Shown here: positions 3,847 through 62,500 of the stretch, one piece after another
Layout: each line of letters begins with the position of its first letter
Position numbering within the stretch: position 1 is the stretch's first letter
IMG/VR virus record: IMGVR_UViG_3300030060_001926
Coordinates: 1-64,000 of that record
DNA from: an uncultured virus (IMG/VR IMGVR_UViG_3300030060_001926)
Lineage: Duplodnaviria > Heunggongvirae > Uroviricota > Caudoviricetes
Strand: one strand, 5' to 3'
DNA: 64,000 nucleotides
Translations under genes and position numbers: made by a program
Notes under the pieces: generated by a model
Told to the model about the DNA's origin: nothing
Seen by the model: only the letters and a program-made list of their open reading frames with translations
Database searches by the model: none

Positions 3847-3855
3847 AGTTCCTCC

Positions 3856-4467: not shown

Positions 4468-4482
4468 AGTAATCTCCTTTCT

Positions 4483-7231: not shown

Positions 7232-7251
7232 ATCTTTATCCCCTTTATTAA

Positions 7252-8654: not shown

Positions 8655-8665
8655 TTATTTTCTCC

Positions 8666-10567: not shown

Positions 10568-10579
10568 TTATATTCCTCC

Positions 10580-15778: not shown

Positions 15779-15790
15779 AGGTTTGTCTCC

Positions 15791-19674: not shown

Positions 19675-19676
19675 AA

Positions 19677-19856
19677 TTAGTTCTCCTTTTTATAGGGTGC
19701 TTTATTATTTAAAGCTTTCTTGCGTTTGCTGCATCCACAGTCTTTCTTGCCAGCCTTTGGATTACTAGTAAGCTTACCTAAAGAAGCAATGTAAGCAATT
19801 TTTTCAACTGTATCACCAAGTCCTTGGGACTTTTTTTGTAGAGGATTTTCACTCAT
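19677..19856 (-). CDS. Small conserved phage protein (GLGDTV...CGC..RK..LN type)
   Basis: 59 aa from ATG 19856 with AAGGAG RBS. Confidence 0.6.
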   Translation of the reverse strand: MSENPLQKKSQGLGDTVEKIAYIASLGKLTSNPKAGKKDCGCSKRKKALNNKAPYKKEN

Positions 19857-19866
19857 TATATTCTCC

Positions 19867-20196
19867 TTATCTTCGCCTGCGTCTATTACATAACAATGCA
19901 ATAGGAAACAGTGCTAATGCACCGGGAGATGGGATAAACAACATAGTTCGTAGATTATCTACTCCAGTTTTTATTTCACCAATAGTTCCTAGCCACTCAG
20001 CTATAGAATCTAAAGCTTCCTTGCCAGCTATTGCACCAATACCAATACAAACGGCTGTAAGAATAAACACCTTTTTATCTAGTTTTTGAATTTTCTTGTC
20101 TTTAGCTTGTCCACTTGTTCTGCATTTATGTAAATCATTTTTAACTTGTTGTAGTTCTTTTTTTTGACAATCACACTCAAATTGTTGTTCTTCCAT
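19867..20196 (-). CDS. Membrane protein with PEP-CTERM-like C-terminal sorting signal
   Basis: Likely start ATG 20196 (GGAGG RBS); ends 'IPSPGALALFPIALLCNRRRRR'. Confidence 0.65.
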   Translation of the reverse strand: MEEQQFECDCQKKELQQVKNDLHKCRTSGQAKDKKIQKLDKKVFILTAVCIGIGAIAGKEALDSIAEWLGTIGEIKTGVDNLRTMLFIPSPGALALFPIALLCNRRRRR

Positions 20197-35560: not shown

Positions 35561-35585
35561 AATAAATCTCCTTAAAAATTAATAA

Positions 35586-35659
35586 TAGGATCGGTGGGAC
35601 TCGAACCCACACTGTATGGATTTTAAGTCCACTGCCTCTGCCAATTGGGCTACGATCCC
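35586..35659 (-). tRNA. tRNA-Leu(UAA), short variable loop
   Basis: GGGATCG acceptor, GTGGA-CTTAAAA-TCCAT anticodon arm, GTGGG-TTCGAGT-CCCAC T arm, discriminator A, no encoded CCA. Confidence 0.88.
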
Positions 35660-35662
35660 AAA

Positions 35663-35735
35663 TGGTCCCAGCTGGGCTCGAACCAGCGACAGTCGGATTA
35701 AAAGTCCGATGCTCTACCAACTGAGCTATAGGACC
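35663..35735 (-). tRNA. tRNA-Lys(UUU)
   Basis: GGTCCTATAGCTCAGTTGGTAGAGCATCGGACTTTTAATCCGA...GGTTCGAGCCC; canonical cloverleaf. Confidence 0.95.
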
Positions 35736-35788
35736 AATAGTAATACCGCCCGCAGCATCATATAATGACAGCACTTTGGGTATTACAG

Positions 35789-35862
35789 CACTCCGAGCAG
35801 GACTCGAACCTGCGACCTGCTGATTAGAAGTCAGCTGCTCTATCCAGCTGAGCTACCGGAGC
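35789..35862 (-). tRNA. tRNA-Arg(UCU)
   Basis: GCTCCGGTAGCTCAGCTGGATAGAGCAGCTGACTTCTAATCAGC...GCAGGTTCGAGTCCTGC; canonical cloverleaf. Confidence 0.95.
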
Positions 35863-39304: not shown

Positions 39305-39655
39305 CTAGCCATCAAGTTCTCTTGCACCCAATACCATACACTTAGGAATTTTATGCACCTGAGAGAACTCAGCAGGCCCAACACAAGCAACTACAGCATA
39401 TTGATAATCATCTTCATGGACAAGATAACCAACAGTATTCATTACAGGTAGCTTTGCTCTTGCTGCTGACCTTGTTTCATCTTTATCAAGCCACTCCGAT
39501 CCACCTGTAGTTTGTGCATCTATCCATTCAATATACATGATCTTGGGTAGCTTTTTAACTACAGTATACTTAGCCGAAGAAGTATTCTGAGTTGAGGACT
39601 TCTTTGATGTCGAAGTCATCCGATCTTTGTGGGACTTCAGGGAGCTTGATTTCAT
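39305..39655 (-). CDS. Conserved phage hypothetical (W.DA...W...TVGYL type); true start probably ~39540
   Basis: Motif pattern common in small phage proteins. Confidence 0.55.
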   Translation of the reverse strand: MKSSSLKSHKDRMTSTSKKSSTQNTSSAKYTVVKKLPKIMYIEWIDAQTTGGSEWLDKDETRSAARAKLPVMNTVGYLVHEDDYQYAVVACVGPAEFSQVHKIPKCMVLGARELDG

Positions 39656-42021
39656 ATTTCCTCTCCAAATAACTTTTGAATTTTTCTAGTGGGTTATCTT
39701 TATGGATCAAATAAAAGTTGTATCTAAGTATGTGATCCATACAATCAACGTCAGGACCATATGTCCCATACGAATCATGGACAAAACTAAATGCAGTAAT
39801 GCCTTTCTTTAGCATGTCTGCAATTGTCATAAACATATGAGCAGCGTCCCAACTATGTATAAAGTTAGGACTAACCGCCAAGAACTGGGCATCTTCATCT
39901 AGCTCTTCGCTAAGAGTAGAAAATACTAGTTGTTGTTTGTTGAATAGCTCAGCGTATGAGATACGCTCAATGATTTGATTGTATACATGCTGAACAACAA
40001 AGCCAGAATCAGTTGCCCAAACCAATGGAAGGTTCAGAGAATTGATAATTCTAGTTACATCACGAAGATAATCTTTGCCACGGTTAGGCTCTTGCATAAC
40101 ACCAGACAAACCATCTTGCAAGGCACGGCTCATCTCAACAATTGCACCGCCCCTCTCTTCACGATCTACCCAANNNNNNNNNNACCCAATCAACATGGCC
40201 TTCTTCTTTGACATACTTTTGAATACCATAAAATGTAAGGCCATATGCATCACACATGGTGCTACGCTTAGCAACCTTACGAGGCAAACCATCAGGCCAG
40301 TAGTCAACAAACTTATCATACCATTCAATACTATCCTCGTTTGAATCCATTACCTCATAAGCATTGTTAGCTACATATTGATAAAGGTCTTGTGGCTTTT
40401 TGCTTGGCAAAACATTTGTAAGTTTAGCAAGCTTACTGTCACGCATAATAGCAGACCAGTGTTGAACACCATTGTTTGCACCATCCTTTTGGATAGGTAG
40501 CTGTGTCATACCATCTGTTCTGCATAATTCAAAACAAGCAGCAAGACGTTGAAAGCTAGGGTTCTTTTTCTTAGCTTTTGATTGCCAAGTGCAGTTAGTA
40601 TATGGGTTTTCTACATACCCACGGATCTCATCCATGTTATCATCAACCCATTTAACACGTTCATCATAACTAAGTTTATCTTGATCAAACAAGTTAGCAG
40701 TATGAACCTTAAGCCAATACAAGCCACGCTCTGTTTGGGGAACAGGCTTAGCAAACTGAATCAATGCACGATCAAAGTCAATGCCTTGACATGACAGCAG
40801 TTCACATACAGTATATGCACGACCACGAAAGTCAAGCGTGTATGGCATGTAAAAGAAGCCAGCGTCTTTCATTTTACGGGCAAGCTCTAGACGAACAAGC
40901 ATACGACTACGAGACTGTTCTTCTTTGTACCACTCACCCCATGCTTCTGTTGAATCAGCCATCCATTTTGCTTGCTCTTTCTTAGTACCATCTTCAGGAT
41001 ACGGACGAGAGAATGCAAAGTCTCTGAATGTATAAGCAGGTAGGTTTGCTGTTCGGTGATCAGTATAAAACAGATCTGACATAACCTCGAAAATCTTTTC
41101 GTTGATTGACCATTCTGTATTCATCATAGCATTCAAACCATCAAGAACCATCTCGCTTGGCTTGGAGTTGTAGTCCCTAGGATCACAACCAACAGGATGA
41201 TAGCGTTTGATCATACGCTTACGAATCCAAGGCGACAAGAAACCACCATCTTCTTTTTCTGTATGTGGAACAGGAGGACAAAGCATAGGTCGATAAACCA
41301 TACCGCCAAGCTCTAGAAGATTGTGTCGTTTATGAAGTTCACGAAGAACATCAGGTGAAAAAGAAATAAGCAAAGACTTTTTCTTACGTCCAGTCCACAC
41401 TACCTTTGATGCAATGATATCAGACTGCATTGCAATCCGAAGCATGTTGTGACCAAAGTCTTCTTTTTGTTTAGGCGAATACTTATGTACGTCACCCATT
41501 TTCTTAGTAAAAGCACGGCATCTCTTTGGAGTCCAGTTCTTAATGAACTTAGATTGTCGAGTCCAGTCATCTTTAAACTTTTTCTTAGCTTGTTGATAGT
41601 TATTAATAGCGATAACATCATCAGCAATAAGTTTAGCTACTGATTGTGCAGAAGGTGCAGTCAATGGAACACCTTGAACAAAATCAATATTAGTTAGCGT
41701 CTGTCGAGACAAGAACATATTAATAACAGAACGAATTGTAATGTCTGCCATCTTAGCAGCACCAACAGAAAGCAATGGAGCAAGCCATGCTGGATTCTTT
41801 GGTCCTTCACAAACCTTATCAATCCACATTTGATAGTATGGAGTTAGGTGAATAACAGCAGACTCAAGCAGCAACTGCTCAGGTTTGCCTTCATCTTTTG
41901 CACGTTCCCAGTCTTTCCAGTACCGCTCTACACCAGAATCAACAAGCTCTTCCTCCCATGCTACCTGTTCGTTCTTTCTGTTTTCTTGTTCGACTACAGT
42001 TAGTTCATCCCATAGGGACAT
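39570..42021 (-). CDS. T7-type single-subunit RNA polymerase (canonical, ~811 aa after closing the N gap)
   Basis: 'PMLCPP', 'DFRGRAY', motif A 'DGANNGVQH', 'PQDLY', motif B 'RKVAKRSTMCDAYG', 'PNFIHSWDA', motif C 'VHDSY'; the two ORF-track pieces join across the 10-N gap. Confidence 0.96.
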
Positions 42022-45299: not shown

Positions 45300-45436
45300 T
45301 ATTTAAAATTTAGACATCCATCAGCTCACATCAATAAGCTAGGTTATTTGGCAAAGATACTACAGTATACAGGCGTGTTGCCATTTACACTACTGGGCCT
45401 TCTAGGCCACTACCTAGGATCATGCCAGCTACAAAA

Positions 45437-45656
45437 GCTGAGCAGGCAGGATTCGAACCTGCATCTCCTAGTATACTGTTGTATACCTTTGTAAGCTTTC
45501 ACGAATACGTTACTTGCAGTATAAGGATTTCACGGCCTCGTCCGGAATCTATACCGTAGCGAGGCCCGCTTTGGGCCTAAGAACTATTTATACTCGCCCA
45601 AACGAGTCGTACTTATGATGGATGCATCCATAAAGACGAGGGGTCCCATAAGTACA
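45437..45656 (-). ncRNA. Structured RNA ending in a tRNA-like T arm
   Basis: GCAGG-TTCGAAT-CCTGC at the 3' end; upstream hairpins GTACTTATG/CATAAGTAC, TTTGGGC/GCCCAAA, GGCCTCG/CGAGGCC. Confidence 0.45.
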
Positions 45657-45666
45657 TTAGTTCAAA

Positions 45667-45853
45667 AGTGGGCAGGATTTCTTGATTACCTGCAACGTTT
45701 CGGAACCATATCAAGTTCTAATATGTCCTACTTTGTACCACCTACACGAGCCTGACTAAGGCTGGCTCATCCGATTGGACTCTGCCAGATGGGTCACCAT
45801 CTTGGTAGTTGTGCGTTAGCCCTATGGTAAAGGCTTGTTCCGCCACCACAGTC
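45667..45853 (-). ncRNA. Expanded tRNA-like structured RNA (~185 nt)
   Basis: 5' GTGG-TG-GCGGAA...CGC (Leu-like D arm), 3' GCAGG...AATCCTGC-CCAC, several internal hairpins. Confidence 0.5.
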
Positions 45854-46404
45854 TAGCCTGATCGAGGCATAGACTTAGTTTGTTGTGTTGTTTGGCTGCA
45901 CCGTTTGGGTCACCCCCACTCGCAGTTCCGGACTACGATAGGCTTTGTGTTTAGAGAGCGGCAGCACACTCTAGCGTCAGTCTATATTACACCATTTAGG
46001 GGAGTAGACTGACCGCCATACAGTCCCCGAGGCATGGCGTATCCTCCTACATAGCGTAGGAAGTAACATCGCCTCTCAAACAACATCAAAGAGACAGCCT
46101 GAGGTTGCCCTCAAGTTGCCCTGTGCGTCCCTTGTACGGGACCACACTTATTTCATGGTAGCATGAGCCTAGGTGAAATAACTTTTTAAGACCCTCGGTG
46201 TTTATTGCACCACCCTAGCGAACAGTACGCTACGATCCTGTTCACGGCCATCTTTTGGTACTCCGTTTGTCTGCATGACAACAGTTGCAGGCACGGGCCA
46301 GCCTGAATAGCACCTTAGTCCCCCGAAGGGGACCAAGGGCCAGAGAGAGAGAATCACCCTGCATCCCCCAGAAGGGGACGTAGGGCGAGAGAAAAGAGCA
46401 GACC

Positions 46405-46659
46405 CTAGAGAGTGATGGGCTTGCCTTCTGCGTCCACGAAGGGATCTTCGGGCCACAGCTGGGCAGCCTTCTCATTCAGCTCCTTGCGATCAGCTTCTCC
46501 CCACCGATTCTGCTCGGTAGCACCCGTGTCCGGGTCCTTGATCGCCAGCTCCACTCCGTAGCAGGACTTGAACCTGTTACGCCAGTAGGCCAGAGCCTTG
46601 GAAGGGTCCGAGGGAGGCCCCTTAGGACCTCGTCTCTTCCGTTGAAGGATGGTCGTCAT
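46405..46659 (-). CDS. Early hypothetical protein (GC-rich region)
   Basis: 84 aa, GGAG RBS. Confidence 0.65.
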   Translation of the reverse strand: MTTILQRKRRGPKGPPSDPSKALAYWRNRFKSCYGVELAIKDPDTGATEQNRWGEADRKELNEKAAQLWPEDPFVDAEGKPITL

Positions 46660-47023
46660 GACACATCTCCGGGGGTATGTACTTAGGTTGGACTAAGGTG
46701 TACAAGCCTAGTCACCAACCATAGTGTGAAGCTACCCAACCACACACTAATATCACCATCCCTAAGAGCTACCCTAGGGACCAGTACTACTATTACACCC
46801 AACTTTACGTCGGCTGCAACAATACCACTATAGTTCGTCGCTCGAACCACCGGGGCCGCAGATCACGGTGATCAGTCTCTAAGGCACGTGGTGTTCGTGC
46901 CGCTCCGGCGTACTTGCACTCCCACCGTGACTGGGGTCTCACGAACCACAGCACACTAGCGTAGCGGGAATGTATTGCGTCCACCCTCTGACCCTACATG
47001 GGATCGGAATATTTATTCCCCCT

Positions 47024-47060
47024 TAGAAAAGAAACTCCCCGCCCGGTAGGGCGAGGAGAA
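47024..47060 (-). terminator. Rho-independent terminator after the second RNAP
   Basis: Minus strand CTCCTCGCCC-TACC-GGGCGGGGAG then TTTCTTTTC. Confidence 0.75.
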
Positions 47061-47082
47061 TGTGGTGTGTACGACTCGAAGG

Positions 47083-48936
47083 CTAGGCTCGAAGCAGGAC
47101 AGCGTCAGCGGGAAGGGCATGGTAGACACGCCCGAGAGTTTCCGCATTCTCGCTCATCACCTCGTTGTACGCCTCGGTGGCGACACGTTCCAAGATGTGC
47201 ATGTGATTCGGGTGAACCCCAAACGCATCATGGATGGAGGTGACGAAGATGCCCAAGGCTCCCAGTTTCCGAATGATCCGAACTGCGATCAGTCGGTCGA
47301 GCATGAAGATCCTTTTCGCCAAGAGCGGCGTTCCGGAATCTTCCAAGGTGTGAACGTAGGTCGAACAGCTGGGCTGTCCGATGACCTTGAAGTTCTCATC
47401 CCTTCGCCTGTACCGAACAGCACGGGTCAGGCCCTTGTGGACTTTGAAGGGTGAGGTCTGGTACTCGTAGCCATCCGTTCCCCTGTAGATGGGGAGATCG
47501 CCGTTGGAGAGGTGATACTTCCAGTTCTTCCGGATCTCTTCCTGAAACGAATCAAGGAAGGGGAACTTGCGATGGAGGACTCTCGTCAACTTCTTCGAGA
47601 GCTTGCCAATGGCTTCCATCTGCTCATCGGGGGACAGGTCCTTACCGATGTGTTCGAGCAGAATCGGATGGATGGACGGCAAACGCAATCCATCTTCCCC
47701 GAAGTTCCACTCACCGAAAGCGTCCTTGCTCATGTCCGTGAGCTTGCACGAGATGGCACTCTCGCCCCCGCCGTACTGGCCGGGAGTAATGCAGCTCTTG
47801 GAGATCGGCTTCAGGTCATCCAAGGAGTGAATCCTGAGATTACGGATGCTATCCGTGAGACCCTGTGAGAACCGATCATGAGCACTGAGGAAGTGCGGAC
47901 TCGCAACGTTCACCATCTGATGGTGTTCCGAGAAGTTTTGCCTCGCTGCGATGAGACCCATGCCCTGTGCGACAAAGTCGCGGTACACGGTGTAACTGGT
48001 GCTACCAGTCTCTCTGGCTTCGAGCCAACCGCGAGCAGCGGCCAACTCATCAGCGAACTTCTTGCCCTTCGCGTGGAACATCAGTTGTTCCTTGCTCTTG
48101 GCATCGCGATCCACTTTGTTCGCCCACGCATCTCTCATCGCGTCGGTCCACCGCCTAGTCCCGAAGGATTCGGTGATGTGCCTGCGAAGATTGAGCCAGC
48201 CCGCGTCCGTCAACTTCTCAGAACGCCCCTGCATGACGCACCGGAGGAACCGGCTGTAGACAGGGTGAAGGGCCTTCGGGTACATTCGACCCGACTCGTC
48301 CATGCGGGAAACAACGAGGTGGAACAAGTTTTCCTCGATCCGGTCGAAGAGGTCTGCCAGCTTATCGCCGGAAACCTGATCCTCTTCCGAAAGAAGGGAC
48401 TCGATCACCTCATCCTCGTAGTCGTAGAAGATCTTGTTACGATCCTCTTCCGACAAGCTTTCACGGAACCGCTTGACATCGTCCCAGTTCGACTGGTTGA
48501 TGGTCCACGGCTTGTCCGTGAGGAGCTGCATGGCCTCCGACTGCTCGTCCGAGACCTTGAGGTCAATGCGACGAGCAACGTGTGGTTGCACGTTGGGAGG
48601 GGTTCGGTGGGCGAGACGACGCTGAGGTGCGACCCACTTGTCCCGGTCGAGCCGTTCCAAGTTGTCGTCCAGTCGTTCGAACACGACCTTCTGCACCTCA
48701 TTCATCGAAGACACCATCTGGATCTTGGTCTCCCGTCCGTTCCTCTTGAGAGGTTCGGTTTCGAGCGACAGTTCCGAGCGGAACGTCATCCAAAGTGAAA
48801 TGGACATCTCCGACATCATCCAGCTTTCGGACTTCTTGTCCTCCAGCCACGGCTTGAGCTTCGACTGGAGGAGATCGTCCGTCAACTGACGGAGCTTCGC
48901 CTTCGAGTCGTTAGCAAGCGTCTTACAGAGTTTCAT
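47083..48936 (-). CDS. Second, divergent and shortened T7-type single-subunit RNA polymerase (617 aa)
   Basis: 'MDESGRMYP' (DxxGRxY), motif A 'RDFVAQGMG', motif B 'KPISKSCITPGQYGG', motif C 'TSIHDAFGVHP', in correct order. Confidence 0.8.
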   Translation of the reverse strand: MKLCKTLANDSKAKLRQLTDDLLQSKLKPWLEDKKSESWMMSEMSISLWMTFRSELSLETEPLKRNGRETKIQMVSSMNEVQKVVFERLDDNLERLDRDKWVAPQRRLAHRTPPNVQPHVARRIDLKVSDEQSEAMQLLTDKPWTINQSNWDDVKRFRESLSEEDRNKIFYDYEDEVIESLLSEEDQVSGDKLADLFDRIEENLFHLVVSRMDESGRMYPKALHPVYSRFLRCVMQGRSEKLTDAGWLNLRRHITESFGTRRWTDAMRDAWANKVDRDAKSKEQLMFHAKGKKFADELAAARGWLEARETGSTSYTVYRDFVAQGMGLIAARQNFSEHHQMVNVASPHFLSAHDRFSQGLTDSIRNLRIHSLDDLKPISKSCITPGQYGGGESAISCKLTDMSKDAFGEWNFGEDGLRLPSIHPILLEHIGKDLSPDEQMEAIGKLSKKLTRVLHRKFPFLDSFQEEIRKNWKYHLSNGDLPIYRGTDGYEYQTSPFKVHKGLTRAVRYRRRDENFKVIGQPSCSTYVHTLEDSGTPLLAKRIFMLDRLIAVRIIRKLGALGIFVTSIHDAFGVHPNHMHILERVATEAYNEVMSENAETLGRVYHALPADAVLLRA

Positions 48937-49202
48937 GGTGAAACCCTTCCTGTCTCTTGCGAGACTGCTTGGTTAGTGACAGAGCCTGCAACGTTGCAGA
49001 CTCAAGTCGGCACACAACCTTTCGGTCATGCACAGAACGAAACCCACACTACGACTAGTGTGGATAACTCACACTCACTCCCGTACACTACACATCCTTG
49101 CGTAGAGGAGTCTTTGAGTCATAGCACGGTAGGTACATCCTTGTACTTAAGTGCTTCCAAAAATCCTGTCTCACCCGGTAGGGCAAGACAGGGGGGTTGA
49201 GT

Positions 49203-49574
49203 TCAGGTGAACAGCTTGAGGTCCTTGACAGCCACGCTCTTGTCGAGCGTCCACTCGGTGAGGTTGAAGTAGGGTTCGGGAACCCAGTGCAACTCTTCAC
49301 CCAGCTGATTGGCCGTGACGCAGACACGCATCACACACCAACGCGTCCTTCCGCCGCCAATCCTCTGAGCGAAGACGTGCGGCTCCGAAACGAAGCTGTC
49401 GTCGGACTCCGGCACGTAGTCGTGGAGCTTCTTGATCTTGTCGATCATCTTCTCCAGCTCCGGGCCGTTGCAATCCTGAAGTGCCTTCTCGAAAGAAGAC
49501 GCGAACAGGACGTTAGTCCTGAACTCTATCGGCGTGCCTACAACACGACGATGCACGGTAATGGTAGCATCCAT
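49203..49574 (-). CDS. Early hypothetical protein
   Basis: 123 aa, GGAG RBS, GC-rich codons. Confidence 0.6.
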   Translation of the reverse strand: MDATITVHRRVVGTPIEFRTNVLFASSFEKALQDCNGPELEKMIDKIKKLHDYVPESDDSFVSEPHVFAQRIGGGRTRWCVMRVCVTANQLGEELHWVPEPYFNLTEWTLDKSVAVKDLKLFT

Positions 49575-49686
49575 AATGCTTACTCCATTAGAGAAACAGT
49601 GTTAGCTCATCACGCGATGAGTTAGTACTGCGGAAAGCCTCAGTCACCCGTTAGGGCAGCTGAGACTGAGTGAGTCTCTGGGGGTA

Positions 49687-49956
49687 TCACTCCCCCCTTT
49701 CTGGTATCCGGTCCCAGAGAGCCGGAACCTCTGCACATTTCACGCAGACTTCTCCGTATCTCCACTCCGGGAACTCGTGCGACCCGGTGTTGACCTCCAC
49801 CGTGAGGTACGGTGTGTCACACTTCTCACACCTGAGTTCCTCCACAGCCTCCGGAGTCTCCGCTTCCGGATTCCTCAGGAAGGGGATCACAGTCGCGAGG
49901 ACCATGAGGCCGATGAATGGGATGGCGAAAAGGACGATAAGGATGATGGTGAACAT
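49687..49956 (-). CDS. Early membrane-anchored protein with CxxC...CxxC
   Basis: 89 aa; N-terminal TM, 'CEKC' and 'CVKC'; AGGA RBS. Confidence 0.6.
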   Translation of the reverse strand: MFTIILIVLFAIPFIGLMVLATVIPFLRNPEAETPEAVEELRCEKCDTPYLTVEVNTGSHEFPEWRYGEVCVKCAEVPALWDRIPERGE

Positions 49957-50054
49957 TTGCTATTCCTTTCTAAGAATAGAGGGGTAACGGGGGGTAGCAC
50001 AAAAACAATTTATACTACATGGCCTCGTGGATATTCTCGACCCCCTAGTCGATT

Positions 50055-50249
50055 TTACGGTCCACCAATGCTACCATCTGGGTTAGTATCAAGAGCTGCA
50101 CTTAGTTCTTGAAACTTTTCAACTTGCCCATCTCTAACTGTTTTAATTGCACCAATTGATCCTGCACCCATCACAGTGCCAAGGATCATGTATTCACCAG
50201 TTTGCATCCCACGTTCGTCTTTTAAAAATTGTTTAATAGCTGTAATCAT
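50055..50249 (-). CDS. Flp/Fap (type IVc) pilin-like protein
   Basis: 'KQFLKDERG|MQTGEYMIL' matches the Flp prepilin G|xxxxEY motif; 64 aa; GGAG RBS. Confidence 0.75.
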   Translation of the reverse strand: MITAIKQFLKDERGMQTGEYMILGTVMGAGSIGAIKTVRDGQVEKFQELSAALDTNPDGSIGGP

Positions 50250-50269
50250 TTAAGTCTCCATATGTTAAA

Positions 50270-50530
50270 TTATCTAGGTATGTCTTTTACAATAGACATC
50301 ATTCTATTTGTAGACCACTCTCTGTTTTTATCAACGTTACTAATAATCATGTCAATCTCCCTTCGTAACTCTGTATTGTCTCTAGCTCTAATTTCCCTTT
50401 GGTGTTTTACTTGTTTTTCTAATGCGTTTACTTTGTGACTAATCCGCCACACAAAACCAATTAAAGCGAATAATGCAGTACTTAATATTGTCATCCCGAT
50501 ATCAACGAGATGTGCTCCTATGTCTTCCAT
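50270..50530 (-). CDS. Small membrane protein (1 TM + coiled coil), holin-like
   Basis: Likely start ATG 50530 (GGAGGGAG RBS); TM 'ILSTALFALIGFVW'. Confidence 0.55.
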   Translation of the reverse strand: MEDIGAHLVDIGMTILSTALFALIGFVWRISHKVNALEKQVKHQREIRARDNTELRREIDMIISNVDKNREWSTNRMMSIVKDIPR

Positions 50531-50581
50531 TCTTTCTCCCTCCTGTGTAATGGTTAACAATCTTTATTACCCACTTCTAAG

Positions 50582-53500
50582 TTACTGTCCGAACAATCCT
50601 TTCGGTGCTTCTTGAGTATCCCTGTCAATAATAGAGCTTACGACATCTTCGGGTTTGGAAGTAGGGGTAGTGATTTCGGGCGGCGCGGGTTGTTGGAGCG
50701 CGGCGGAAGAGGGTTGATTAACGGGGGCGGGGGGAGTGCCTATATTTTCAAGGGACTGCACAAGAGCCTGCCTAGTGTTAAACTCTTTAATTACATCTGG
50801 AATATTTCCATCTAAAACCTGCTTATACATTTCCTTGGTATCATTATTCCACGTAATGGCTGCATGACTGCTTCTCATTCCGTAATGCAAGTTTGGAGTT
50901 TGAGAGCTGCCTGTAGTTCCTCCTCCTCCTGTTCTTCTGTTTGAATCCCTTGAGATTCCATCTCCACCTAGAGTGTACACACCTAATCTTATAGCTGAAT
51001 CTGCATAAGGAATAATTCTGGTAGCGTTTAACATGTCTTGGTTATTGGGCATTGTAGTTAAGCCAAACATAGCTGCTCCTGCTTGAGCACCAGTAGATAC
51101 AGCTCCTAGTGTAGTACCTAGTGCAGCAAAGGGAATGAACCCAGTATTCTTAGACAATGCTCTAGAGAAGTCATATTGACCGGGGAATTTGCCTTGTGCG
51201 ATTCCGTCAATACCCATAGCAAGGACAGGGCCTAGAAGACTTAGCCATCTACCTAACAGAGGAGTTCTCACAAGTAGTTTAGAGAACTTAGCAAATCCGT
51301 CTTCTTCATACTCTTCTAGAATATCATCTAGTTCAATTCCTGCAGCTAATTGAAGTGCGGTCATGTAAAGCATATCCATGAGTAATAGACTGGTAAGACC
51401 AAAGGCTGTTCTACCCACGCTGCTCCTACTAGTCCTTCTAATCATTTGTTGACTAGCGAACAGTACAGGGTATCGACGATAGATTTCAAACAATGCACTT
51501 GGAGTATCTAGCTCTCCTGTTCTTACGTCAAATACATTGGGAGTAAGAATAGCTTCTTCTACGTACTTCCTTTCTACTTCTTTCAATCCAGTAATTACAT
51601 CTAGCTTTCGGTTATAGTCTTGTCTGTCAAGTCTAGAAGAGCGAGTTGTAAAGAGTTCGTGACTCATTTCAAAGGGTGAGTATCTACCTTCTTCTGGCAT
51701 CATGGTTTGCATATCAATGACTTTATCTACCTGTAACAACCCAGCCCTCATTAGATAAGATACAAGTTGTAGATCGCCTTCAAAATTACTGTACCCAGAT
51801 TCTTTCATAGCTCCCTTTAAAGCTCTCTCTTGTTCTTCTATAGGTAATTTATCAATATTTTTCTCTTCTAATTTAGTTGCTAGCTCAAGCAGTTTACTTC
51901 TTCCTTTACTATCTAAATCTAATCCGCTTTGAATCCAAGAACGAGCATTGATGGCTCTAGCAGCAGTAATATTTTTAAGCTGCCATTTAGCCAGTCTCAT
52001 TTGTTCGTTACCCATACCTTTAAATAATTTCATAGTTATGCCATCTTCTTGGGAACCAAAAGGTTTTTCAAACTCAGGTAAGTATCCTTGTGTCATTGAA
52101 TCAATGAGATAAGAGAAATCTTTAAGAACTCTTTTTCTTTCTTCTCTATTTGTAATACCCATAATAGGAGCGAAAGCAGTCCTAATAAATCCTGTTAAGT
52201 TTCTTCTGCCAATTAGTTCGTCCAAAGCAGAGTACCCGTTCTCAACAATAGATGTAGCTAAGAATAAGTTACCACCAAAAGCAATTCTAGTGACAGCATT
52301 AGCTACTTCTGGTATAGCTGAGTCTATTGCGTTAGATGGACTAAGCTCTGTGTTTGGTCTTACCTTTCGCATTGCGTTATGCTTCTCATTTAAGATTGTT
52401 ACAGTATCTGAAATTTGGCTCTTTGTTCTTGGGTTATTTTCTCCCTTACTGTCTAAGATAGCGTAGTTAGAATTATTAACAGCACTTAAGAGATTCAACA
52501 CTTGCTTAACATCACCGTGAACACCAAACTCTCTCATTGTTTTCTTTTCAGAAACTTCGTTATAGAGTCCGTGTCTAGCATTTTCTGCAAGAGCGGTTAA
52601 GTCAGTAACAAAGAATTCTTTCATATCATCGTGAGAATTTAACATTGCCTTAACACTAGGTAAGGCGAAGTTATCATTAGGATAGTAAGCTCCTACTGCT
52701 GATCTTTCTAAGAAGTTAAAGAAGATATGATCTAAAGGATTTGTCTGTACACCAAAAGCTGAACTAAGAGAACGTGCTTTAACTCTTCCCTCTACTCTAA
52801 TGTTTGGAGTAATGCCTAGATTTTCCTTAGTCAAGCCTTCTAATCTTCTTGTGTTTACATTTTCTACAGTCTCGATAAACCCTTTGTAAGCTTCTTTAAA
52901 TCTAGTTGTTTGAGTTCTAGTACCCTTAGCAAACATTTGATTAACAGTTACGTTTCCTTTGGTTAGTTGATTCATTAGTTTGGTCGAACCTAATCTAACC
53001 TTATTTAAAGCCATAATATCTCCGCCCTGCAATTTGCTATCAAGTATCATTACCTTGGCTCTTACGTCTCCTGTTTTATCTGTAATAGAGTATTCTAAAA
53101 TAAAGTCGTACAATACTCTGTGATTTTCTTTTAGATTCTTAAGGTCACTAAAGCCTTTAGCGTTGTCTCCCAAGTGGGGTAAGAATCCTGCAGCAAGCAT
53201 CATAGTTCCTTCTACTCTGCCATTTGCATTAAATTCTGATATTAGTTTCTTTTTAATTTCAGCCTTTGCTATATCTACGAATGTTCCCTTTGCTGTAATT
53301 AAATCACTGTTAACACTAGTGCTTAGTCTATAAGGAACTACATTAGTAAAGCCTGTCCCAAACTCTCCGATAGATTGTCCTGTATCAATATTCTTTTCAG
53401 CCATTTGCCTAAACGTACTAGCCATTTGATTTAGCTGTTCTTTGATTAATTGTTTTTCTTCTTCAGAAAGTACTACCCCTAGAGCATCTTCAGATAAATC

Positions 53501-56500
53501 ATATTCGTAACTACCAGCTACAGCTCCTTCATCTACGCTTTCAATAATCTGAACATTCAATACCTTGAATACTTCTTGAGTACTCTTCTTCATTTTCTCT
53601 TCGCCACGTACAGTACTGTATAGAGGTCCGTTTAGTATTTTTACAATTTCTTTTTTATTCTCTCTCATAGACTGAGTAAAGGAACTTAATAATTCTAACT
53701 CACGACGAACTGACGGAGTTCCTCTTGTGTTTGTAAACCCACCAGAGTTAGTAACAACGTTATCGTCAATCAGAGAAGTAAGTAACAAGGCAATTAAGTT
53801 GTGAGAGTTCCAAGTACCTTGGTGACCTGTATCTCCTAACAAAGCACCAACTAACCCGTCTCTTAAGCCCGGACTCATGTTATTTGCGAGGGAACCTAGT
53901 CCTCTATTTACTGGTTCTCCGTAAGTATTAAACAGTCCTTCAGCAAGGTAAACAAAAGTAACAGCCTTTTCAAATGAATCTCCTTCTACTAGTACTCTTT
54001 CTAAATCAATTACAACTTCATCTGTTGGGTTTCGTACTTCATTTTCTAAGTCCTGCCGTTGTGTCTCAGCTGCATACTTACCTTTAACTTGATCTAAGCC
54101 TCCAATATATTCGTACCTAGTCATAGCTATAGTAGAAGCCCCTTCTCCAGCAGTTCCCAAGCCTACTGGTTCTCCGTAGTATCCTTCGCCCTTAGCCATG
54201 ACAATATTATCTAGTTCAGTTTGTTCTTCGGGAGTTAATGAGTCCTTTGCCTTGAGTTCATTTTCCTTTCTAATCATGTTTCTAATTTCTAAATCTTTTA
54301 CTGGATCTACTTTAAGGACTTCTAACTTGTCCATTTTCTTTCTCCACCCAAACCTTTTATCTGCAATGTCAGTACTATCAAATTGATTTCCAGTATAAAC
54401 ATCATTACTGCTATCGTATCCGAAGACATTCAAAGCCATTCTTCTCATCTTCTTATCAAATTCTACATTGTCTGTTTCAAATGCACCTCGTAGAGAAAGC
54501 ATAGTGTTAGACAAGTAGCCCATCATTCTTTTAATAGAGCTAGTAAACTTGCCCCATATACCTAGTTCTTCTGTAGTCAATCCTCTAATAACAGGTTGGA
54601 CATCAGCGAGTAAGTATAGAGAAACAAACCCAGCAATAAACTCTTCTGGATCTTCTATATATCCTAGGAATTCTTCGTTTGCAGCTTCTGTTTCTACGCC
54701 ACCATGCCAAGCTATTACAGCTTTTTTCATCATGCTTCTGCCTGCAGTACTTTGCGAAAGACCTACAAGTTCCATATACTCTGGGCTAAAGTCTTTAATA
54801 AATTTCAATCTAGCAATGTGGCCTAGCTCGTGAGCAATTATTTCTACAGCAGTAAAAGAATCTTTGGCTACTGATCTAAAGTTAGATCCTAGTCGAATAG
54901 TAAACTTACCGCCTGCTCGTTCAGCTTCTGCTCCTCGTTTGAGAATTTGATCCAAAGCTTTGAATTTTAATTCATGAACAATATCAGGGTTTAGCATAAA
55001 TGCTCTTGCAAGTAGAACTTTAACTGCGACTGATTCTTTTTTATCTATTCTTCCATTATGCACTAGCTCATCAATTTGTTTCATTTGGTCTCTTACTAGC
55101 GGTTGCCAGAAAGGATCAAACGTTTCTACTCCATCCCCCGCCTCAATCTTTTTAATAACATCAGTAAGTTCCATAGTAGATCTTCCTACACCAGAATCCC
55201 AGTTCTGTTCAAAAATAGATCCCGGCAATTCATCTCTACTAGTTATATCTGTTAACTCTCTAATAGCATTTCTAATTGCATCTTGCATTTCTCTTTCATC
55301 TTGTACAGAAATACTTCCGTCTTCAGCTGGAGTAACAACTCCCTTTTCAATACGAGTTTGCAAGAAAGAATCATAAGCGTCATCAGGATTTAAAGATCCG
55401 TCTGGATTTTCTAAAAGGAATTGACGAGCTGCATAGTGATGCTTGTTGTTTAGTCGAACGCCTTCATCAGAGATATTCATCTTTATTCTGGCAGACAAGT
55501 CCATCGCTGATTGAAGATCGATAGGCCAGCTATCTGCCTCTAACTCTTCTGGTTTGAAGAATAGTTTAACTTTGTTTTTTGTAAGATCTAGATTTGGATC
55601 TTCTAGCTTTAAAGCAACTAATCTAAGTTTATTAAACGCTGTTTGAGAACCGTTTCTGGTTTCGACAATTAGAGTTTCTAGTTCTTGTTTTAAAGTTTCA
55701 ATTTCTGTTCCCGGTCCGATAGTATCTCTGCTTAACATGTGGACTAGTTTTCTTACTGGGCTGATATAAGATTCTCTCCAAGAGTCAACAGATGTACCTA
55801 GGTTTCCGTCGTTCCATCTAGCTCCTTCTCCAGAAGAGTAGTAGTCTAGATCTACAATCTCTACTATTCGCCCCTCAACGCTTGTCAGAGGATCCCTAAC
55901 ACTTCTGAGGGTAACTCCCCCTTCTTCGGAGGAAGCTCTTAGAAGGGACTCAGAGTCGTTTAAGGCAGCATGTTTAATCGCTGTACCATCGTATCCTAAG
56001 CCACTGGCTACTGCATCTTGCAAGGGAACTGCTCTTACTACTTGACCATTGTTATCTATCTTTACTCCTAACCCCTTGTTAAGCCAACTACTTAGAGTAA
56101 GGTCTCGCATTGTAGTAGCATTTTCAAGAGCCACAAACATTTTCATAGCTTCCTGAGGACCTAAGATTATCTTAGCATTTTTAGCCGTAATCTTTTGAGA
56201 GGTCATAAACATCATACCAAAACCTACAGCTGCTCCATACGGACTCTTTGCAGCTTCTCCTTCTCTTGATTTTCGTGAGATCTGGAGTCTGTATTGGTTT
56301 GTTTTCTTACCTTCTCCTTCCTTTACGTCTTGGTATATAACTTCTTCAATACCTACCTCTAATTCAAATGAAGGCATTCCGGCAACATGCTGTCTAGCTA
56401 ATTCTCTTATCTCTGTTCTCTCTTGAATAGCTTCTTCCGTAGTCATGCCTTTGCCTATCTCTTGTTCCCATGTAGTAGGATCCATAGCAAACTTAGAATA

Positions 56501-59500
56501 CTTTCCTTCCTTGTAAGTTCTTAAGACATTACCATAAGCTTCGGTATATAAGATAGCGGCTAAGAATTTAGCTTTATCTGAACCTTGGACTGCCCACCCT
56601 TCTTTTGTTAAGTCTGAAACTTCGAATAAATCAATCGTTTCAATCTCTTCTCCTTCATCAACTATAAGGGTATTGTAGTCTGCATCTGTACCAAACTTAA
56701 AAGCATCGTCAAGCATAGTTCTTCTTAACAGCGTACCATCTGGATTATCTTCAGAAGCAACTGAAGTAAGGATATCAATCCATTTCATATCGTCTGTTGG
56801 AGGATTAACTACTGCTACTGGATCTCCTCTTCTTGCAATCTCTAGCTTTCTTCTTCCTTCTGGATTTTTAATGTCTCTAGAGTATCGAGCTACATCGTGT
56901 AGTCCGCTAATCCAAGCGTTCCTGTGAGCAACAGTATCTGAAGTTTCAACAAGATCCCTCTCTCTAACCCTTAGCATAACATCGCGTCTTGCTCTTTCTG
57001 CTTCTTTAATAACATAGAACCTAGCGAAGTTTGAAGGCTCTTCTTCTAACTGCCTCTCTAGTCCTCTATCCCTAGCCCATGAATGTACTTCGTAATATAG
57101 TTTTGCAGCTCTTTGACCAGCGTTAGATCCCATATCAATGGCAATGTGTGCAGGCAAGACAGGAAGAACTTGAGGCAATTCTTCTGCATTCCAAGGCGAG
57201 TAGCCTCCAATGGCTTGTCCTCCTACCATAACATCTTCATCTCTAAGAGTCTCTTGATAGTTTCTAATCGAGTGTAGAGGTCCTAGTAAGTTATTTAATC
57301 TTTCTTGAATATGCAATCTTTGAAGTTTAAAGAAACCCATATCATAGTATTGAGATTCTTTATACTTAGGTCTCACAGCCATAGGTCCCTTTCGACCTGA
57401 AGTATGAATCATTACAGAAGTAGGATTATTTTCAGATACATGGTAAGGAGTATATCTAAAAGCTTGGTCAGAAGCCGCGACTACTGCTTTATTTACGAGT
57501 CCTCCTGCCTTATTCTTAAGTTTAAGATATCGGCTTTTTGTCTTAGCTCTTTTCCACTCAGACATTTCGAATTCCATTTCTTGTTGTAGACTTCGGTGTC
57601 GTCTTTCTGAATGATCTCTCCAAGATTCTAAAACCTTTTCTAAGATAGAAGTTTCAGAAACTTCTTCGGTATAATCAGGGAATACATCTGCGGGTGGCTT
57701 GTCGTATCTAGACCATAACAGCATTTCTTGTTTAATCATTAAGTCTTCAACCTTATCTTCCAACTGTTTGTCTGTCATTCCGGAATCTCTGTCTTCTCTC
57801 AATGAAGGATCTCTAAGATCAAACATGCCTAAAGAATCTGCATTATCTTTGTCTGTTTCTAAGAAAGCGTCAAATTTAACTAGAATTTCATCTCTACTTA
57901 ATCCTTCAGCATCCTCGCTCTTAAGGAAATCAAGGAAGCTTTCGTAGTATTTTCCTGTGTCTTTGTCTTGATAAAGAGATTTTCTTGCTACTCTTTCTAA
58001 AGATATGCCCATAGTATCAACTTGGTTACTTGTCGCATAGTCTCTAGTAGAGTTTCCACTAGGAAGCATTAAGTGATATAGCGCGTGTTTTTCAAACCCA
58101 AGGTAATCGTTAATATCAAAGTCAGTAAGACCTAGTAGATCAGCAGCTTCTTGCATTCTTTCAGCATTTAATCTGTATTCTTGAGAGTTTTGAATGTTTA
58201 AAGCTCTTAAATATCCAATAGTTTCTGCCGAAAGTTTGTCTTCTACTCCTGAAAGAATAGCTTGGAACTCTGAATAATTTGGTGATCCGGGGTGGATGGG
58301 TTCCCCTGCTTCTTTTTTCTCTTCTAAGAACTTCTTAGCTTTTTCAAATCGCTCGTCCCATCCCTTTGTTTTCTTCCATTCTTCAAAACTCATTTCGCCT
58401 TGTTTAGTATCTAGTCTCCACATTTGTCTTAACTTAGCATCTAATAGATCAATATGAGTAGCTGTGTTTTCTAAAGATTCTCCTAGGGCTTTATTGTCCA
58501 TCTTCATAAGATCACGCCAAGCATCAATCAAGGGCTTATCTCTATCTTGATCAATCATAAGATACTTATGAACTAAAGTTTTTGTTTTATCGTTAGACCC
58601 TAAAGCAAGCTCTACTAGTAATACTCTAGTTTCATGGTGTCCGGATTGACTAAAGATAGCCTCTCTAATAACTTTAATGTTTTCTTCTGATGGTTTAATA
58701 CCTGCTTCAACCATCGCATTCCAGCCCTCTCCACCCTTAGAAAACTCTTTAATAAAGTTTGGCATACCGCCGCCATAAATTTTTCTCATCACTGGAACTT
58801 TAAAGATACTTCTTAGTTTTTTAATTGCTTCAGCTTGCTTCTTTATTTCTTCATCTGTTTTTGCTTTTTCTTGTAAAGCAAGATAATCTTTTACAGACCT
58901 AATATCAGTATCTTGAATGATCTTAAAGATTTGTCCTAATTCAGAATCAAAACTTGTAACTCCTGCTAAACCCTTGATTGCTGCTAACATATAAAAGTCT
59001 AATTCAGCCTTGGGCTTACCTCTAAATCCTCCGCTAGCTATTCTTTCAATAATTTCTGGGCCAGTCAAGGTCTCTCCATCTACTTCTAACGTTGCAGTTG
59101 GATCATGAGCAAGAGATAGTAGCTTGTGTTCAAACACACCACTGGCTGTTCTATCGCTCCAGTTATCTAAAGACATTAGCATGTCTAAATTAACTCCTGT
59201 TCCTTCAGCCTCTCTAGCTTCTCTTAACTTCATTACTCTTTTAATAGCAGCATCTGTAAAGCCTTTGAACATAGGACCCATAGCTTCAATTGCCATTACC
59301 TCGCCAATTCTACCTAGAGGCACTAACACATGATCGCCGTGACTTAAGTCATACATTAATCCTTCGCCTGTATCAGCTAGGTTTCTTCTATCGATCTCTA
59401 CTTCTTTACCATCGACCTCTACAGTAATGACTCCTTCTTCTACTCCCTCGTTAAACATAACCTTCTCTTGAGTAATCTGGTCATGAATGAATCCTTGTGC

Positions 59501-62500
59501 ATTTCTGGGAACATCAAGAACCATTTCCATTACCATTTCTTTAGCCTTAGCTCTAGTCATTACAGCCTCTTGTAAGGTAGCCCCTACAATTTGAGGAATA
59601 ATAAAGAAGGGTAAGTCAGCCTCATCGCCAACTGGAGAAACTTCTCTATTTCTAAGGTCAGACCATTTAGCGTCTCTCCATGCTTCGTACGCTTGCTTTT
59701 GCTTCTTAGTAAATTTATCTTTACCAAGAATAAATCTCATTCTTTCTCTAGCCTTATAATTCTGAACAATCCTAGCCATTTGCATTGCAGGGATAGGCAT
59801 AGCAAAGTTAATCTCGCCCTCCATTGGGAGCCTGACAGTTACTGGCTCTCCTCCTGCTACAAACTCTTCAGTAGACTCTCCGGGTACGGGGTTACCATCT
59901 TTATCTGCAATAGCTGTTAGGTTTTGAATATTAGGTTGTGGCTTATCGCTAAGGAAGTCTACAATACCGTAACCTGCATTTTTAGCAGAACCATATCCAG
60001 ATCTCCCATTGCCAAAGTCTTCTAGTAAGATTGCATTGTCTCCTTGGTACAATCCTCCTAGGTTATCTATAATAGCATCAGCAATAACATCTTCAATGTT
60101 TTTAGTTAAGATTTCCCCATCAGGCATTACTACTTCGTACATTACGCGGCCTGACTCATCTTGTCTTTTGTTAAGAGTGAGATTAAACTTATCCGCAATG
60201 TTCCTAATATCTCTTATTTTGTTTTGACTAAGCATAGAGGAAACTCTAGCTCGAATATGAAACCTTGCTTCTTGAATCCATTCTCCCTTGTTTCTGGTAA
60301 ACTTTACAGGGAATCCTGTATCGGGATCTACCTCTAAAATCCAACCGCCTTCACGATCAGGATTATCAGGATTAGGTTGTCTTTCGTTAAACAAGGCTTC
60401 GTTAATAGCTGAAGAGGCTTCATCCATTCTTTCTACAAACTCTAAAGCAGTGTAAAGATTTACTGCTGAGTTAGGATTTGATTCGTCCCTAGAAGCTTCT
60501 TCTAAAGAATCAAGAACAGTTGCTAGTTGGTCCTGCCTCCATCCTTCAATTTTTGCTAGACCTCTTTCCTTCCATGCCCTAGCAATTTGAACTAAGCTTT
60601 CAGGATCGTAACGTAAAGTATTTTGAATGATCTGTAAGTCAATCATTGCCGCAGTGTTTACATCAACCAAATCATTATCTCTTAGAGCAGAACGAGATCT
60701 ACCTAATACATTGTTCCTTCCGAACACATGGTATGGTTTTAAACCCACGTAATCTCTAAGATAAGGAGGCATGGCTTGATTAATTTCCCAAGCACTGATA
60801 CCTTCTTCTGGGTCTCGTATACTAGCTAGGTGATTTAGGTTTGCCTCAAATTGAATCCAAGCTTCTACATCTTTATCTAAAGACCTAGTAAACTTTATTT
60901 CTGTTCCTCTCTTTTTGTCCTTTAACTTTTTAACTAGTTCTTGTTTCTCGCCTTTAAGAAGAGTTCTTTCGTCCTCGTTTAGTTTGCTTCGAGCATCCCA
61001 AGCCTCTTTCATTTCCTTTTCACCAATGCCCTTAGCAGCCTTGTTAAAGTTCTCTTCGCTAGATCCTATGCCTAGAACATATAGGTTGTACGAGTTTACA
61101 GCGTGGTAGTAATCCACAAATCCTAGAGCTTGAGCTGCATTGTCTCTTGCTGTAAAACCATCAATTAGTGTTCCGTAAGTTTCTGTAGGACTGTCAAGAT
61201 ACACTGTACCTCTTTGCCTTACGGGTTCATCGAGTTCTTTACCATCTTCATTAGATTTTTCTAAGACAGTTTCTACATCGTAAGAAGTACCTAATACATC
61301 GTCAGAAGAATGGTTATGTACCCAGTCTCCTCTAACGTATTGATACCTTCCTCCAATCCTAATGTCTGTCATTTTACCAACGCCAAGATATTTAATTTTA
61401 CTAGCAGCACTTTCGGATTCTGCTCTAAAGATATCTTCTGCTTCTTCAGTGGTATAGGTTTCGTTCATAACCTTTTCAGATTCTTCGATACCACTTGGTT
61501 CTCTTTCTGCTAAAAGCTCTTTGTTTTCTTTCCATTCAGAATATGGGTGAAGATATCTAGCTATCTCTTCTGCGGTAAAGGTTTCGTTGTTTTCTTTTTT
61601 CCTTGCTAACGCAGAATCAAATAATCTCTGACCGGCATCAAAGAGTTCCGTTTGCTTCTTTCTTTCTTTTGCACCTGTTTGTTGTAGACGTAAGGCTTGA
61701 AACTTTTGAATGTCAGCAATAGTTTCTTCCTTTTGTATGTTAGCAATAATTGTTCTGTATTCTTTGTCTGTTTCTTTTAATGCCTCTTCTAATTCTATTG
61801 CCTCTTTATATTCGTCTGTTTTTTGTCGTCTTTGTTCCTGTGCCTTTCCGATTGTTTCTATCTTTCTTAAATCTTGCATAAGACTTTTGGTAGAATATTT
61901 TTTAGCTGTAACCTTAGACTTTCCTGTTTGAAGTAACTCTTCAATTCGCTCTAAGAATCTCACTCCAGTTTTTGAAGTATCTCCTTGTAATACCTCTCTA
62001 AGTTCTTTAAGTATTTCTCTAGTTTTTTCAGAAAAGTTTTCTACTCTTACATCCTTAGAGTCAGAGTCAGCGATATCTTCTGCCACACTAGAAGCAAATT
62101 CTTGTTGCAACTTTATTATTCTTCTAATTCTGTTATTACCAAATATTACACCCTTATCATCTTTTAAATCTGAGTTTAACAAAGCTATGATCTTATCAAG
62201 CCGGTCCTGCTGTTCAATCAGTGTTTGTAATAAACTAGAAGTTCTTTCGTCATTTATATCAAGATCTGCCATAAGCGATGCAGTTTCTAAAGTTATTTTA
62301 TCCTGCATTTTTTCTAAACGAACTCTTAGAGCAGATAGTCTTTTCTTTTCTGCAATTAGTTTTCTCTTTCTTTTTTCTGGAGGATCTTTTTCTAATTCTC
62401 TGTCTACATCAGTTTCCTCTTTTGAAACCTTTTGTTTAAGGTCAGCTGCTCGTTGAGCAGTTCTAGCTTGTTTTTGTAATGGATCTAATCCCTGTCTTCG

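Follow-up and report, generated by a model that had tools for sequence, protein, structure and literature searches.

A compact, highly diverged second single-subunit RNA polymerase at the core of a conserved G+C-rich module in a T7-like phage

The stretch of DNA analysed here (the window, 64,000 nucleotides) comprises positions 1 to 64,000 of the IMG/VR virus record IMGVR_UViG_3300030060_001926, an uncultured member of the Caudoviricetes, and is a phage genome with every gene on the minus strand. In addition to a canonical T7-like RNA polymerase (RNAP), the phage encodes a second, compact RNAP, referred to below as the mini RNAP. It forms the core of a conserved module that also holds a variable membrane-type open reading frame (ORF), two small genes (o123 and o84) and structured RNAs. 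We regard its identity as a single-subunit RNA polymerase of the T7/N4-RNAP-II superfamily as practically certain. Taken as a whole, we consider it probable that the mini RNAP is a functional compact enzyme, the second RNAP of the phage and the core of its module, which most likely acts as an early cassette with the help of cofactors. The gene and the residues that identify its product are as follows (aa, amino acids).

47083..48936, minus strand: mini RNAP, a compact single-subunit RNA polymerase of 617 aa and 71 kDa
Residues 213-217: DESGR
Residues 319-325: RDFVAQG, with D320 as the motif A residue
Residues K380 and Y388: motif B
Residues 541-547: KRIFMLD, with F544 and D547 where HxxD is usual
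Residues 568-572: IHDAF, with motif C at H569-D570

An earlier note on this DNA, written from the letters alone, had described the product as a miniature, highly diverged second T7-type RNAP. That description was upheld by the predicted fold (Z 27.8 to T7 RNAP), by the retained motifs and by the presence of a canonical copy in the same phage. The strings it listed (DESGR, RDFVAQG, the motif B Lys and Tyr, KRIFMLD and IHDAF) are all found in the translation.

Sequence profiles were used to place the protein among known families. The search that the note had proposed, with the Pfam family PF00940, went against it: the mini RNAP protein had no match at E<=1, and a six-frame search reached only 10.6 bits (E 0.006, profile positions 322-359), below the cut-off of 22. 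No PHROGs family matched the protein either. Among PDB entries, a profile built from 6 close sequences significantly matched just one, chain B of 6DT7 (the 404-aa N4 RNAP II subunit named 'RNAP2'; E 1.5e-5), and motifs A and C of the mini RNAP line up with those of this chain. The likeness to N4 RNAP II that had been suggested earlier is therefore borne out, N4 RNAP II being the one relative of solved structure that this profile picked up.

When 1.84 billion representatives were searched exhaustively by profile, 65 proteins came up at E<=1e-3, mostly of 500-640 aa, and 56 of them were used for a wide alignment. R217 (of DxxGR) and D320 (motif A) are invariant in this alignment, and K380, Y388 (8 residues apart), D547, H569 and D570 are each at least 90% conserved. 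The motif B Tyr selects ribonucleotides, a role known from T7 Y639. PF00940 matches 16 of the 56 members, and phrog_2051 ('RNA polymerase') matches 19 (tally at E<=1e-3). A repeat word-index search with the wide alignment found two further long RNAPs and nothing else. Against the PDB, the wide profile matched the yeast mitochondrial RNAP (E 9e-39), the large subunit of N4 RNAP II (gp16, E 5.9e-36), T7 RNAP (E 5.4e-27) and the small subunit of N4 RNAP II (gp15, E 2e-12), the last being matched by the wide profile only. The N4 small subunit matches the stretch of the profile immediately preceding the large-subunit match, and both subunits are covered in order. Because of this arrangement, we read the family as a single-chain counterpart to the two-chain N4 enzyme.

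In a maximum-likelihood tree of 62 sequences, the mini RNAP falls in an 8-row clade (support 100) nested in a 43-row clade (support 99) of 500-640 aa proteins, apart from the canonical long RNAPs. Twenty-six of the 30 nearest representatives had no PF00940 match at E<=0.01, and 2 were above the cut-off. In PHROGs at E<=1e-5, 27 of 29 proteins were unmatched, and the two that matched (P0031 and P0063) lie outside the 43-row clade; the phrog_2051 tally took in members beyond those run individually, and the clade as a whole cannot be called invisible to PHROGs. The inner clade has a signature of its own, with DFVAQG at motif A as compared to DAxASG in the wider family, and Phe for His in the HxxD segment. 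Relatives were also sought by other routes. No match was obtained by tblastn of the mini RNAP and its relative P0011 against 50,697 isolated-phage records or by blastn of the module against isolated phages. Single-protein scans of viral contigs with P0006 and P0011 found nothing, and a scan of genome contigs for relatives of the mini RNAP found none and no cellular homologue.

The fold was predicted with AlphaFold. A model from a 6-sequence alignment had a predicted local distance difference test score (pLDDT) of 40.5 and was discarded; the 56-sequence alignment was used instead. The resulting model has a pLDDT of 92.8 and a predicted template modelling score of 0.92, and is uncertain only at residues 1-4 and 185-201. 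In VIA-align comparisons, residues 106-616 of the model superpose on residues 267-883 of T7 RNAP (8dh5_E) with Z 27.8 and a root-mean-square deviation of 4.3 over 447 residues, which is the outcome that the structural check proposed in the note had looked for. Human POLRMT (Z 27.3) and the N4 mini-vRNAP (Z 21.5) were also matched, and all 50 of the entries listed are RNAPs. Foldseek against the PDB likewise returned mitochondrial and T7 RNAPs at E ~1e-13 with probability 1.00. The C-terminus of the mini RNAP superposes to the final residue of T7 RNAP. At the other end, about 105 residues stand for the first 266 of T7 RNAP, so that the N-terminal promoter-binding domain is strongly reduced, as had been claimed from the sequence.

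The model has a long beta-hairpin (residues 497-531) ahead of the helix bearing the FMLD segment. We take its position to be that of the T7 specificity loop, from the order of the elements and from general knowledge of T7 anatomy. A second beta-hairpin (residues 60-75) lies inside the short N-terminal domain, and its assignment is presumed on the same grounds. In the model the palm and fingers are complete, the thumb is short, a hairpin resembling the specificity loop is present and the N-terminal domain comes to ~105 residues. The mini RNAP falls outside Pfam membership, yet every structural and motif characteristic that marks the superfamily of T7-like single-subunit RNAPs is found in it.

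The shape of the enzyme bears on one alternative, in which the mini RNAP serves mainly in replication priming or in DNA entry by transcription, with gene expression secondary. T7-type RNAPs act in DNA internalisation and POLRMT acts in priming, and a reduced polymerase without most of the promoter-binding N-terminal domain would suit such a task. However, the phage has its own primase-helicase (phrog_239, 5.9e-159) and DNA polymerase, a newly made protein cannot start genome entry, and the specificity-loop-like hairpin is kept. We find this alternative very unlikely.

The mini RNAP ORF is a real gene and not a chance frame in G+C-rich DNA. Five homologues were found in public assemblies (608-617 aa, 49-98% identity), and the 6 coding sequences compared contain no stops and have pairwise ratios of nonsynonymous to synonymous change (dN/dS) of 0.20-0.33. 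It is these homologues and stop-free, constrained coding sequences that exclude a chance ORF. Synonymous sites are saturated between lineages (dS >1), and the sole unsaturated pair, L001/L004, has a dS of 0.028, a dN of 0.006 and a ratio of 0.20. The signs of pseudogenisation that could have overturned the earlier description are absent from all 6 sequences.

We give almost no credence to the mini RNAP being an inactive relic or a chance ORF. The protein's lack of a Pfam or PHROG match would fit such a reading, as would the long antisense ORFs that run over the entire gene in two related loci (623 aa at L001 9959-11830, minus strand; 599 aa at L007 1315-3114, minus strand). The antisense frame is interrupted, however, in the window and in L005, and we take the antisense ORFs to be a by-product of G+C-rich third positions. 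The dN/dS range, the conserved catalytic residues and the confident, complete fold also speak against a relic.

The mini RNAP is the second RNAP of this phage. With a wide RNAP profile, two RNAP genes and no more are detected across the 82-kb record (G000) from which the window is taken, and a related viral record (G001, 63 kb) carries both a mini RNAP and an intact 819-aa canonical RNAP. The canonical gene of the window is located as follows.

39570..42021, minus strand: canonical T7-like RNAP, ~811-819 aa, carrying the motifs PNFIHS.D and HDSYG

The ~811-aa canonical copy cited in the earlier note is real. Ten consecutive N at 40173-40182, flanked by duplicated TTGGGT, divide it into two reading frames of 620 aa and 252-259 aa; it matches PF00940 at 1.5e-43 and 6.4e-32. 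The alignment to the intact G001 homologue runs on unbroken across the gap. A frameshift or pseudogene was considered for the canonical RNAP and rejected, the split being due to the N run. The phage's primase-helicase, DNA polymerase, portal, capsid, tail and terminase genes are also of the T7 type, and the terminase shares 36-38% identity with terminases of Autographiviridae-like phages.

The module in which the mini RNAP lies is distinguished from its surroundings by composition, and its limits and protein-coding members other than the mini RNAP are given below. The two ORFs named in the earlier note as neighbours, of 84 and 123 aa, are both present.

45300..50050, minus strand: G+C-rich module of ~4.7 kb, 52-60% G+C in 200-nucleotide (nt) windows as compared to ~40% around it
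49687..49956, minus strand: o89, the first G+C-rich gene of the module, with a hydrophobic N-terminus and four Cys
49203..49574, minus strand: o123, 123 aa, just upstream of the mini RNAP, with no family match
46405..46659, minus strand: o84, 84 aa, basic (isoelectric point 8.8), downstream of the mini RNAP

The same order recurs in independent contigs: the C-terminus of a giant protein, o96, variable small ORFs, o123, the mini RNAP and a small basic protein. In other lineages the o89 slot is occupied by different small membrane-type ORFs. The o123 protein is 59-85% identical in 3 other lineages. An o84-type protein was found in every lineage whose sequence extends that far; it is 73% identical in L007, and a shorter form with 25-27% identity stands at the same position in L001 and L005. 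For o123 and o84, the ESM Atlas offered nothing that could be followed. One contig of 4,597 bases, from a separate study, covers 46271-50866 at ~98% identity and crosses the junction between the upstream end of the block and the A+T-rich DNA beyond, so this junction is not an assembly artefact of one sample. Downstream of the module, a tightly packed operon runs from 45299 to the canonical RNAP and beyond.

The composition of the module was assessed by codon position. The G+C content of third codon positions (GC3) is 70-77% in o89, o123, the mini RNAP and o84, as compared to 23-45% in 13 other genes, whereas first and second positions (GC1 and GC2) are the same as in the rest of the phage. Homologues reach 65-81% GC3, and the flanking DNA in their genomes is 35-45% G+C. 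Because dS exceeds 1 between lineages and GC3 nonetheless stays high, the composition is being maintained and was not recently imported. The codons themselves differ accordingly. TTA makes up 0.00 of the Leu codons in the module (of 89) as compared to 0.26 in other genes, AAA makes up 0.10 of Lys codons as compared to 0.53, and AGA makes up 0.07 of Arg codons as compared to 0.50. The phage has three tRNA genes of its own.

35585-35862, minus strand: three phage tRNA genes, Leu-TAA, Lys-TTT and Arg-TCT

These tRNAs best read TTA, AAA and AGA, the codons that are common outside the module and nearly absent within it.

A composition of this kind might also be expected if the G+C-rich block were a foreign or selfish mobile island from a G+C-rich donor, with the RNAP serving that element. 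The composition changes sharply at ~50050 and ~45300, a lone T-arm resembling a tRNA 3' half lies at one edge, the accessory ORFs vary between lineages and the contigs of the region are short. Nevertheless, at least 4 diverged lineages have the block in one and the same position, behind the giant gene and o96, and the block's GC3 of 65-81% persists where synonymous sites are saturated, which argues for a maintained composition and against a fresh import. GC1 and GC2 equal those of the rest of the phage, no integrase and no notable flanking direct repeats were found, and the genome-contig scan gave no cellular homologue. An origin as a mobile island is thus improbable, and we rank it no higher than a role mainly in priming or DNA entry.

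The module also contains several RNA elements, all on the same strand as the genes. The final 1.1 kb of the G+C-rich block has no ORF and holds three of them, the last three listed here.

49638..49670, minus strand: hairpin after o89, G+C-rich, with the apex GCCC-UAAC-GGGU, identified by eye; its U-run is poor and a pattern scan missed it
49165..49192, minus strand: terminator after o123, a hairpin with a U-run, 12 pairs
47035..47058, minus strand: terminator after the mini RNAP, a hairpin with a U-run, 10 pairs of which 8 are G-C
46655..46815, minus strand: o84 leader, with a 21-nt block and a multi-hairpin fold
45662..45873, minus strand: manA-like RNA (RF01745), 37.8 bits over the full model, E 3.7e-7, below the gathering score of 55.2
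45531..45607, minus strand: pistol ribozyme (RF02679), 51.7 bits against a gathering score of 34.5, full model 1-68
45335..45530, minus strand: tRNA-like RNA directly 3' of the pistol, with the T-arm GGTTCGAATCC at 45449-45459

The terminator hairpin after the mini RNAP was present in all five aligned loci, and compensatory changes keep its stem in L005/L006. A hairpin of the same kind as that after o89 also follows o84. The motif seen after each gene was considered as a promoter repeat and rejected, as it corresponds to the tops of the terminator hairpins. The 21-nt block of the o84 leader (46787-46807) occurs once per locus in all seven sequences that reach it, ~130 nt upstream of the o84 start, and has at most 3 mismatches across lineages whose mini RNAPs share only 49-65% identity. 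Of the 29 base pairs predicted for the leader fold, 7 have compensatory changes (4 sequences). The block may act as a promoter or belong to a regulatory leader.

Pistol copies were also observed downstream of the mini RNAP in L007 (4097-4180 and 4934-4992) and L005 (6589-6634). The tRNA-like RNA is conserved in L007 and L005 and stands immediately after a pistol in three lineages (after the second copy in the case of L007). ARAGORN made no tRNA call for 45335-45530, and a match of this RNA to the Y-RNA-like YrlA was weak (16.9 bits). In G001, four tRNAs and a YrlA-like match of 27.8 bits lie between the start and the canonical RNAP. In metagenome contigs, the non-coding interval 45566-46087 has a higher summed depth, many differing flanks and small replacements, and assemblies break there. 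Because the depth is raised and the flanks differ, the structured-RNA region is either shared with other genomes or highly variable.

These RNAs raise the question of whether the mini RNAP is dedicated to its own module, transcribing mainly the structured RNAs (the manA-like RNA and a pistol-released tRNA-like RNA) and perhaps its own small genes. The RNAs are encoded on the same strand directly downstream, a pistol follows the mini RNAP in 3 of the lineages with enough sequence (G000, L007 and L005) with the tRNA-like RNA after it, and o84 has a conserved 21-nt block and a folded leader ahead of it. On the other hand, the 21-nt block is found once per locus and not ahead of the RNA genes, the other flanks and higher depth of the RNA region in metagenome contigs indicate that it is not tied to the mini RNAP, and the covered part of G001 has no pistol. 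We therefore hold a dedicated polymerase to be unlikely, although less so than the mobile island.

We return to the explanation judged probable above, that of a functional second RNAP in an early cassette. What we infer of the timing, template, promoter and cofactors of the mini RNAP may be put as follows. The host RNAP would transcribe the module as an early cassette, which fits the hairpin and U-run terminators between its genes. The host tRNA pool would translate the module, whose codons would suit a tRNA pool without the phage tRNAs. The mini RNAP would then transcribe a first set of phage genes, for example the packed downstream operon with the canonical RNAP. One or more small proteins of the module would probably aid it, as gp1 and gp2 aid N4 RNAP II; small module proteins are plausible cofactors because N4 RNAP II needs gp1 and gp2 (PMC4496689). 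The o84 protein would be the best candidate, ahead of o123. We advance this early-cascade reading tentatively, with somewhat less than even confidence.

A more elaborate form, a cascade of two phage polymerases launched from an insulated early cassette, seems rather unlikely to us. Here the G+C-rich recoding would allow translation from the host tRNA pool before the phage tRNAs appear. It would also stop the cassette from serving as a template for an enzyme that starts, like N4 RNAP II, on short A+T-rich sites. The mini RNAP with an o84-type cofactor would switch on the canonical RNAP operon, and the pistol and tRNA-like RNA at the end of the cassette would cut read-through transcripts.

Several findings weigh against the early-cassette explanation, beginning with the missing Pfam and PHROGs matches of the mini RNAP protein itself. 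No convincing repeated promoter-like motif for either RNAP was found with exact and one-mismatch k-mers in the genome and its intergenic regions. Sigma-70-like sites in the region show no enrichment (9 as compared to 9.3 in shuffles). The o123 gene was not found in L005/L006 and so is not an obligate cofactor. Two small genes just upstream, o96 and o64, have a low GC3, and thus not everything in the position of the module is recoded. The 'early' timing is drawn solely from gene order. Lastly, because the inner clade has unusual residues at two conserved sites (DFVAQG and Phe for His), altered substrate handling is conceivable from the sequence.

Several observations concern the genome as a whole. 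Positions 64001-82250 of the 82-kb record (L016) are collinear with positions 1-20000 of the window at merely 40-50% protein identity, and a second large terminase (70916-72613 of the record) and a second set of tail genes are present. More than one genome, from two related phages, is probably combined in the record, and the true genome is likely ~64-67 kb, compared with 63 kb for G001. The giant ORF upstream of the module spans 50582-63925 (open to 64741 in the full record) and encodes 4447-4719 aa. Related contigs conserve its C-terminus, an HExxH string was noted by eye, and an ORF of 1352 aa comes before it, the two overlapping by 4 nt. The giant protein had no match in Pfam, PHROGs or a phmmer search of the PDB. 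It was considered as an N4-like virion RNAP, and Pfam, PHROGs, PDB phmmer and the RNAP profile gave no support for this, virion RNAPs being very divergent. The stretch occurs in sequencing runs labelled marine metagenome, in the three studies examined, and no RNA dataset is among the public runs that carry it.

If the explanation is correct, some T7-like phages employ a pair of single-subunit RNAPs that they encode themselves. The mini RNAP represents a large clade of 500-640 aa RNAPs that is largely unannotated by Pfam and PHROGs, and because these resources largely fail on it, the diversity of phage RNAPs is undercounted. The compact enzymes of the clade are candidate compact transcription tools. 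The codon island poses a clear evolutionary question: a GC3 of 65-81% in genomes with a GC3 near 30%, across saturated lineages, suggests that synonymous sites are under selection in a phage. The repeated pairing with pistol ribozymes provides a natural context for asking what these ribozymes do.

To our knowledge, possession of two single-subunit RNAPs of its own is a scheme so far described only for N4-like phages, in a different form. The entries returned by our literature search held no description of a T7-like phage with two single-subunit RNAPs or of such a codon island. By sequence, the nearest solved relative of the mini RNAP is N4 RNAP II (gp15 and gp16; 'RNAP1' and 'RNAP2' of PDB 6DT7). 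In N4 RNAP II the thumb and the N-terminal domain are truncated, and the enzyme binds single-stranded DNA non-specifically and requires the cofactors gp1 and gp2 (PMC4496689); on that account, both it and the mini RNAP are minimal T7-type enzymes. They differ in several respects. One chain of 617 aa makes up the mini RNAP (608-617 aa in close homologues), whereas N4 RNAP II consists of two chains of 269 and 404 aa, and the clade of the mini RNAP is set apart from it by DFVAQG at motif A and by Phe in place of a conserved His. The phage itself carries replication, capsid and terminase genes of the T7 type and not of the N4 type. As for a virion RNAP of the N4 kind, the RNAP profile and PDB phmmer detected no RNAP domain in the 4447-aa neighbour of the mini RNAP, a result to be read with the great divergence of virion RNAPs in mind.

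T7 RNAP and the other PF00940 members, including POLRMT and Rpo41, have the same fold as the mini RNAP and have DxxGR and motifs A, B and C in common with it. Identity to them is 11-15%, and the T7 chain has 883 aa as compared to 617. The best structural matches in BFVD are phage RNAPs, compact ones of 527-673 aa among them, and so compactness as such is not new. Two of these, the RNAPs of Escherichia phage phiEcoM-GJ1 (648 aa, E 7e-16) and Shewanella phage SppYZU05 (527 aa, E 2.5e-14), are single-chain enzymes similar in size to the mini RNAP, with which they share only 14-16% identity.

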